From: Escherichia coli
GTDB taxonomy: Bacteria; Pseudomonadota; Gammaproteobacteria; Enterobacterales; Enterobacteriaceae
Reading direction: 5' to 3' (one strand)
Assembly (NCBI RefSeq): GCF_001677475.2
Contig: NZ_CP015229.1
Length of the DNA stretch: 64,000 nucleotides
Shown here: piece by piece, positions 10,556-10,623 of the stretch
Position numbering within the stretch: position 1 is the stretch's first letter
Layout of the letters: every line of letters begins with the position of its first letter
Translations under genes and position numbers: made by a program
Notes under the pieces: generated by a model
What the model was told of the DNA's origin: nothing
The model's database searches: none
The model's input: only the letters and a program-made list of their open reading frames with translations

Positions 10556-10590
10556 TTTCATCTCGTGCAAAAAATGCGTAATATACGCCG
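10556..10590 (+). promoter_or_regulatory. dusB-fis operon promoter (fis P)
   Basis: TTTCAT -35, TAATAT -10 at 10579..10584, followed by GC-rich discriminator ACGCCGCC. Confidence 0.6.
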
Positions 10591-10623
10591 CCTTGCAGTC
10601 ACAGTATGGTCATTTCTTAACTC

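Follow-up and report, generated by a model that had tools for sequence, protein, structure and literature searches.

The window (the whole stretch of Escherichia coli DNA that was analysed, 64,000 nucleotides in length) contains prmA, dusB and fis, in the same prmA-dusB-fis order as in the annotated K-12 derivative RP437, where the genes follow one another as panF, prmA, dusB, fis and yhdJ. Each of the three was identified by a match to an equivalog model, and dusB and fis are the first and the second gene of one operon (Table 1). The window also holds a complete rRNA operon of the rrnD type and the ribosome-binding-site regulatory element of the alpha operon, and the presence of the rrnD-type operon together with the alpha-operon leader fits the part of the E. 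coli chromosome that carries dusB and fis. As a major regulator linked to growth phase, Fis acts on the nucleoid, on rRNA and tRNA transcription, and on virulence genes, and the fis promoter (hereafter fis P) serves as a textbook case of control by ppGpp/DksA, by the concentration of the initiating NTP, and by DNA supercoiling. The elements of this promoter, which lie in the intergenic region between prmA and dusB, are listed in Table 1 along with the neighboring genes and the other promoters of the window to which fis P was compared.

Table 1. Coordinates of fis P, its flanking genes and regulatory elements, and the comparison features of the window.
Feature	Position	Strand	Details
prmA	9414-10295	+	NCBIfam equivalog PrmA, 424 bits vs cut-off 183
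Stem-loop 3' of prmA	10349-10389	+	Fold of 10290-10410: -38.7 kcal/mol, z = -3.6
AT-rich upstream regulatory region	10375-10540	.	22-36% GC, from the composition profile
Near-palindromic Fis-type 15-mer, GGTCAAAGTTTGGCC	10541-10555	.	Abuts the -35, centre -44; candidate Fis site II
-35 hexamer, TTTCAT	10556-10561	+	Direct reading and scripted coordinate check; invariant in 35/35 species loci
Spacer, CTCGTGCAAAAAATGCG	10562-10578	+	17 bp; between genera only 10564-10570 varies, A-tract and TGCG conserved
-10 hexamer, TAATAT	10579-10584	+	Direct reading and script; invariant in 35/35 loci
GC-rich discriminator, ACGCCGC	10585-10591	+	6/7 G/C; invariant in 35/35 species loci
Inferred transcription start, +1C	10592	+	8 nt downstream of the -10; 296 bp beyond the prmA stop, as in the published distance
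dusB 5' leader	10592-10623	+	32 nt; ends at the last base before the ATG
Weaker Fis-like 15-mer in the leader	10609-10623	+	Centre +25, disfavoured -4/+4 base; candidate Fis site I
dusB (tRNA dihydrouridine synthase B), operon gene 1	10624-11589	+	321-codon ORF; TIGR00737 equivalog, 474 bits vs cut-off 293
fis, operon gene 2	11615-11911	+	98 aa; NF001659 equivalog, 181 bits vs cut-off 99
rRNA operon, rrnD-type, complete	23768-29119	-	16S, tRNA-Ile, tRNA-Ala, 23S, 5S, tRNA-Thr, second 5S
StyR-44 match in the 23S leader	27139-27247		
rrnD P2	-35 TTGACT 29331-29326; -10 TAATAT 29309-29304	-	16-bp spacer; -10 followed by ACGCCACC
rrnD P1	-10 TATAAT 29417-29412	-	-10 followed by GCGCCTCC
Alpha-operon ribosome-binding-site regulatory element	42795-42906	-	Rfam RF00140, 102.7 bits

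The original prediction had read a -35 TTTCAT, a 17-bp spacer, and a -10 TAATAT at 10579-10584, and both direct reading and a script found this to be correct to the base. A spacing of 17 bp falls within the 16-18 bp of the stringent sigma-70 promoter class, and no extended -10 motif (TGn) was found on reading the sequence of fis P. Directly 3' of the -10 lies ACGCCGCC (10585-10592, by direct reading and script), the second position of which after the -10, base 10586, is a C (TAATAT-A-C). This octamer had been put forward as the discriminator; the GC-rich sequence is there, but its last C is the start nucleotide itself, so that the discriminator proper comprises 7 nt, ACGCCGC. The assignment of the two hexamers follows a secondary source and general background on this promoter, whose primary papers are Walker 1999, Ninnemann 1992, Ball 1992, Mallik 2004/2006, and Nasser 2002. 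For the start site, PMC3865300 gives 296 bp between the prmA stop codon and the dusB-fis start in E. coli, and the base found by script at this distance in the window is the C at 10592. In K-12, the equivalent start would be expected at position 3,410,248 of NC_000913.3, counting 297 from the prmA end at 3,409,951. The remaining 31 nt between the start nucleotide and the dusB ATG are TTGCAGTCACAGTATGGTCATTTCTTAACTC (10593-10623, direct reading and script). With the prmA stop codon TAA at 10293-10295, the script placed the beginning of the -35 exactly 260 bp downstream, which keeps the promoter between prmA and dusB as predicted and corrects the predicted distance of about 250 bp. Within the 15 nt 5' of the dusB ATG (GTCATTTCTTAACTC, 10609-10623), a purine run resembling a Shine-Dalgarno sequence is missing. 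No annotated feature was found under the promoter match in any of the RefSeq records sampled; the prediction of a promoter here correctly marks a regulatory element that automatic annotation passes over.

By themselves, the hexamers are no evidence of a promoter. They match the sigma-70 consensus at 6/12 positions (TTTCAT vs TTGACA 2/6, and TAATAT vs TATAAT 4/6), which does not rise above the background of the window, where 21,665 of the 383,790 hexamer pairs score at least 6/12 and 118 of these also have an acceptable -10 and at least 7/8 G/C downstream. A sigma-70 consensus scan with a threshold of 9/12 called no promoter in 10200-10800, and it is blank at fis P because this promoter scores just 6/12. 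The exact string TTTCAT-N17-TAATAT occurs once in the window, and with at most one mismatch it occurs twice, against 0.26 expected. The site could be singled out from sequence alone solely through recognition and not through its hexamer score, in keeping with the mixed basis stated for the prediction, and the support that rises above chance is made up of the identity with the K-12 promoter, the invariance within E. coli, and the cross-genus footprint, not of the hexamers. Two terminator-like matches in the vicinity were rejected, since neither has a convergent gene to terminate: the one at 10541-10555 (+) is a short palindrome that coincides with the Fis-type site, and the one at 10588-10576 (-) is the mini-palindrome of the -10 and discriminator beside the A-tract. 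A literature search on the hexamer strings combined with 'fis P' found no paper that prints the promoter, and a match to TTTCAT in PMC4784862 was discarded as an unrelated synthetic oligonucleotide.

Pairwise alignment of 10296-10640 with K-12 gave 99% identity over 345 bp, with four single-base differences (10321, 10340, 10356, and 10495), none of which is in the core promoter; the stretch 10496-10640, which runs from about -96 to +49, is base-for-base that of K-12. The conservation that had been claimed for the promoter is borne out within the species, as the 84-bp core 10540-10623 is present in 5,425 of the 5,426 complete E. coli genomes and falls in the band of at least 99% identity in 5,408 of these 5,425. 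For a piece of equal length adjoining prmA (10296-10379), megablast returned 1,815 hits in the 5,426 genomes, and 0 at 99% identity or more. Within E. coli, this end of the intergenic region, next to prmA, shows an unusual degree of polymorphism. When the 405-bp stretch 10296-10700 was used as the query, the first among the matches listed was VCSW7, an isolate from soil/leaf litter, at 99.8%. The identity with K-12, the equivalog gene context, and the 296-bp distance to +1C together uphold the claim that a fis promoter lies directly upstream of dusB.

To look beyond E. coli, a cross-species scan was performed with one genome per species, anchored on degenerate codons for the DusB N-terminus; because the anchor consists of these dusB codons alone, the promoter was left unconstrained by the scan. 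In the resulting sample of species that retain the anchor DusB N-terminal peptide, 35 loci were returned, from Escherichia, Citrobacter, Salmonella, Kluyvera, Rosenbergiella, [Erwinia] mediterraneensis, and further Enterobacteriaceae. Gapless comparison found a 48-base core, TCAAAGTTTGGCC-TTTCAT-CT plus AAAAATGCG-TAATAT-ACGCCGCC-TTGC, to be exact in 33 of the 35 loci, and the remaining two depart from it by one base, a C-to-T change at 10545. Across six genera, every position of 10544-10596 outside the spacer stretch 10564-10570 is invariant, bar 10545. In bins of 10 nt, identity to the window is 1.00 at 10544-10563 and 10574-10593 and 0.79 at the spacer bin 10564-10573, with 0.35-0.77 for the bins within 10494-10543 and 0.84-0.97 over the first 60 nt of dusB. 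In Rosenbergiella, the most distant relatives of the sample, dusB has 77% nucleotide identity to the window, identity falls to about 45% over the 148 bp that precede the block, and the 53-bp block 10544-10596 has 4-5 mismatches, all of them within the spacer. Identity of the upstream regulatory region between genera is 44-59%. The left edge of the invariant block, at about 10544 (-48), agrees with the published divergence point, E. coli and Salmonella sequences having been described to part upstream of -49 (PMC3865300). On the aligned loci, conservation loosens just in the middle of the spacer, a place where one would expect no specific contact, and such a pattern is what marks a promoter as being under strong purifying selection. 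The dusB leader shows 100% conservation across Escherichia, Citrobacter, Salmonella, and Kluyvera despite having no Shine-Dalgarno-like run, and this conservation probably stems from its overlap with a Fis site. One locus of the scan, L018 (CEFQ01000004.1, titled Enterobacter ludwigii), has a dusB that is 80% identical to the window, and its promoter flanks and leader are closer to those of [Erwinia] mediterraneensis and the MAG UBA2655 than to those of other Enterobacteriaceae; the record may be mislabelled or contaminated.

Such a block might also be kept mainly as a protein-binding or DNA-structure element, e.g., a Fis site or curved DNA, with the hexamers being a chance reading of it. The near-palindromic 15-mer that adjoins the -35 and the background-level consensus match of the hexamers would suit this explanation, which is nevertheless extremely improbable, as the conservation spans both hexamers, the discriminator, and the start nucleotide, and loosens at just those spacer positions with which neither sigma nor Fis makes contact. 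Moreover, Fis sites are degenerate, and a base-perfect TAATATACGCCGCC is not needed for Fis binding. The sharing of the -10/discriminator module between fis P and an rRNA P2 promoter also argues for a promoter, and the published assignment of the region as a promoter agrees with it (PMC3865300). In addition to its role as a promoter, the invariant block may carry a further requirement that has so far gone undescribed, for instance a precise element of DNA shape or topology where the spacer keeps its A-tract and TGCG, or a contact with a further factor, and the sharing of the -10/discriminator with rrnD P2 may reflect selection for kinetically matched promoters. The further requirement is raised because the constraint exceeds what a pair of weak hexamers plus the discriminator and one degenerate Fis site appear to need, and holds even where dusB has diverged by 23%; both suggestions are considered rather doubtful.

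Upstream of the block, the intergenic region starts with a stem-loop that is probably, judging from its predicted fold, the prmA terminator or an insulator, and that would form the upstream edge of the fis regulatory region. Natural terminators have been described to flank dusB-fis (PMC4751926). The tail of the hairpin is AAAATTTT and not a plain T-run, and one of the differences from K-12, a T in the window vs an A in K-12 at 10356, creates a mismatch in its stem. The AT-rich region that follows is where an IHF site, CRP sites, and further Fis sites have been placed (PMC3865300, Figure 1 legend). A motif scan yielded several weak candidates in it, among them an IHF-like motif centred at -122 and Fis-like motifs at -143 and -85, all of these motifs being degenerate. 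The same holds for the Fis motif in general: 15-mers of the form G-N13-C with an AT-rich centre number eleven in the 345 bp. Two of them are centred at -44, a good match, and at +25, a weaker one; the literature describes perfectly conserved Fis sites I and II that flank the start site (PMC3865300), and positions 10544-10555 of the former 15-mer are invariant across genera, bar a T at 10545 in two species. With a motif this degenerate, the two 15-mers are candidates that are consistent with the published Fis sites I/II.

The literature on the start site and its regulation is in line with the layout in Table 1. The initiating nucleotide of dusB-fis is +1C, and because initiation occurs there, promoter activity follows the CTP pool (PMC3865300). 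In E. coli, the fis promoter has a GC-rich discriminator that separates the -10 from the start, and the promoter is under negative, i.e., stringent, control by ppGpp and DksA; the discriminator acts as a melting barrier that is relieved by high negative supercoiling, autorepression by Fis works through sites I and II, and IHF, CRP, and Fis only modulate amplitude (PMC3865300, PMC8422995, PMC4751926). According to its title, Mallik 2006 reports that DksA is needed for the control of fis by growth phase, by growth rate, and by the stringent response. Neither dusB, yhdG, nor the expected coordinates turned up in the searched supplement text of the Cappable-seq, Kim 2012, and Rend-seq papers. That dusB-fis might start elsewhere had been named as the result that would speak against the prediction, and this has largely been tested in print: one group has reported at least five upstream start sites in E. 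coli, and the conserved start is held to be chiefly responsible for fis expression under laboratory conditions (PMC3865300, Discussion).

Taken together, 10556-10592 is almost certainly fis P, the sigma-70 promoter that chiefly drives the dusB-fis operon. A different view would be that the main dusB-fis transcripts come from other promoters in 10375-10540 or from prmA read-through, and that 10556-10592 is a minor promoter. The upstream starts just mentioned, the AT-rich composition of 10375-10540, and the second, anaerobically induced promoter that Salmonella has at -216 (PMC3865300) lend themselves to this view, and with these starts and this second promoter fis P is not necessarily the sole source of dusB-fis transcripts. 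Yet a minor role for 10556-10592 is very unlikely, given the predominance of the conserved start in laboratory conditions, with PMC3865300 also citing Mallik 2004 for a single promoter, and given the low cross-genus identity of the upstream region vs the invariant core block. The blank result of the 9/12 scan speaks against a stronger sigma-70-like site between 10200 and 10800, and the stable hairpin stands between prmA and the upstream region. The fis P of the window is a known promoter in its standard form, an orthologue of the characterised E. coli promoter, and as such it is already known and not new.

The control described in the literature, i.e., that of start, ppGpp/DksA, CTP, supercoiling, and Fis, is expected to hold in this strain too. 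RNA polymerase would use the weak -35 TTTCAT, the 17-bp spacer, and the moderate -10 TAATAT, would have to melt the GC-rich ACGCCGC, and would begin with CTP at C 10592. Haugen et al. 2006 reportedly showed that a non-optimal C (not G) two positions after the -10 weakens the contact with sigma region 1.2 and shortens the life of the open complex, and the C at 10586 would weaken this contact and the open-complex lifetime in the same manner. By analogy with rRNA promoters, the weak elements and the GC-rich discriminator may make for an unstable open complex, and such a complex would allow high output solely under strong negative supercoiling, with abundant initiating NTP and little ppGpp/DksA activity. 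Output of fis P would be high in nutrient upshift and fast growth and would collapse in stationary phase or in the stringent response. Fis would repress its own promoter via sites that overlap the -35 (about 10541-10555) and lie in the leader (about 10609-10623), and sites for IHF, CRP, and further Fis binding in the AT-rich upstream region may tune the amplitude. As fis P is intact and equal to that of K-12, the analysis confirms the standard fis control circuit in this strain and brings no new biology.

Compared with the fis promoter of K-12, for which PMC3865300 cites Ninnemann 1992, Ball 1992, Walker 1999 and 2004, and Mallik 2004 and 2006, fis P in the window is identical over 10496-10640, with the same flanking genes and the same distance from the prmA stop to the start, and it differs by the four upstream single-base changes, one of which (10356) is in the hairpin stem that follows prmA. 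With Pfis-1 of Salmonella enterica, fis P shares an identical core that begins at about -49 and reaches the dusB ATG (arizonae and diarizonae loci; PMC3865300), whereas Salmonella diverges upstream of about -49, where it has about 300 bp of extra DNA and Pfis-2, its second promoter (PMC3865300).

Within the window itself, fis P can be set beside the promoters of the rrnD-type operon. It resembles rrnD P1 in its GC-rich discriminator, in the C at the second position after the -10 (TATAAT-G-C in P1), and in a suboptimal -35 (TTGTGC in P1), and rrn P1 promoters are likewise controlled by ppGpp/DksA, the initiating NTP, and supercoiling according to the literature (PMC3865300, PMC8422995). They differ in having a consensus -10 and a 16-bp spacer and in being activated by Fis, whereas at fis P transcription begins with CTP and Fis acts as a repressor. 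An 11-mer, GTGCAAAAAAT, is found both in the fis P spacer (10565-10575) and in the -35 region of rrnD P1 (29437-29427, minus strand); about one chance match of this kind is estimated for the window, so that it is probably a coincidence and was not retained as a meaningful link. With rrnD P2, fis P shares an exact 14-mer. This 14-mer, GCGTAATATACGCC, has two copies in the 64 kb, at 10576-10589 in fis P and within the rrnD P2 stretch 29296-29331 (minus strand), against 0.02 expected; it takes in the last three spacer bases, TAATAT, and five bases of the discriminator from its start, and NCCT comes next in both promoters. Like fis P, rrnD P2 has a GC-rich discriminator with a C second after the -10 (TAATAT-A-C). 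The two differ in the -35, which in P2 is a near-consensus TTGACT, in the spacer (16 bp vs 17 bp in fis P, where the -35 is TTTCAT), by one base in the sequence after the -10 (ACGCCACC vs ACGCCGCC), and in their downstream genes and upstream activator architecture. Since rrnD P2 shares the 14-mer and rrnD P1 has a similar discriminator, the stringent-type architecture of fis P can be verified inside the window, and the control described in the literature supports the prediction of a stringently controlled, growth-rate-regulated promoter.
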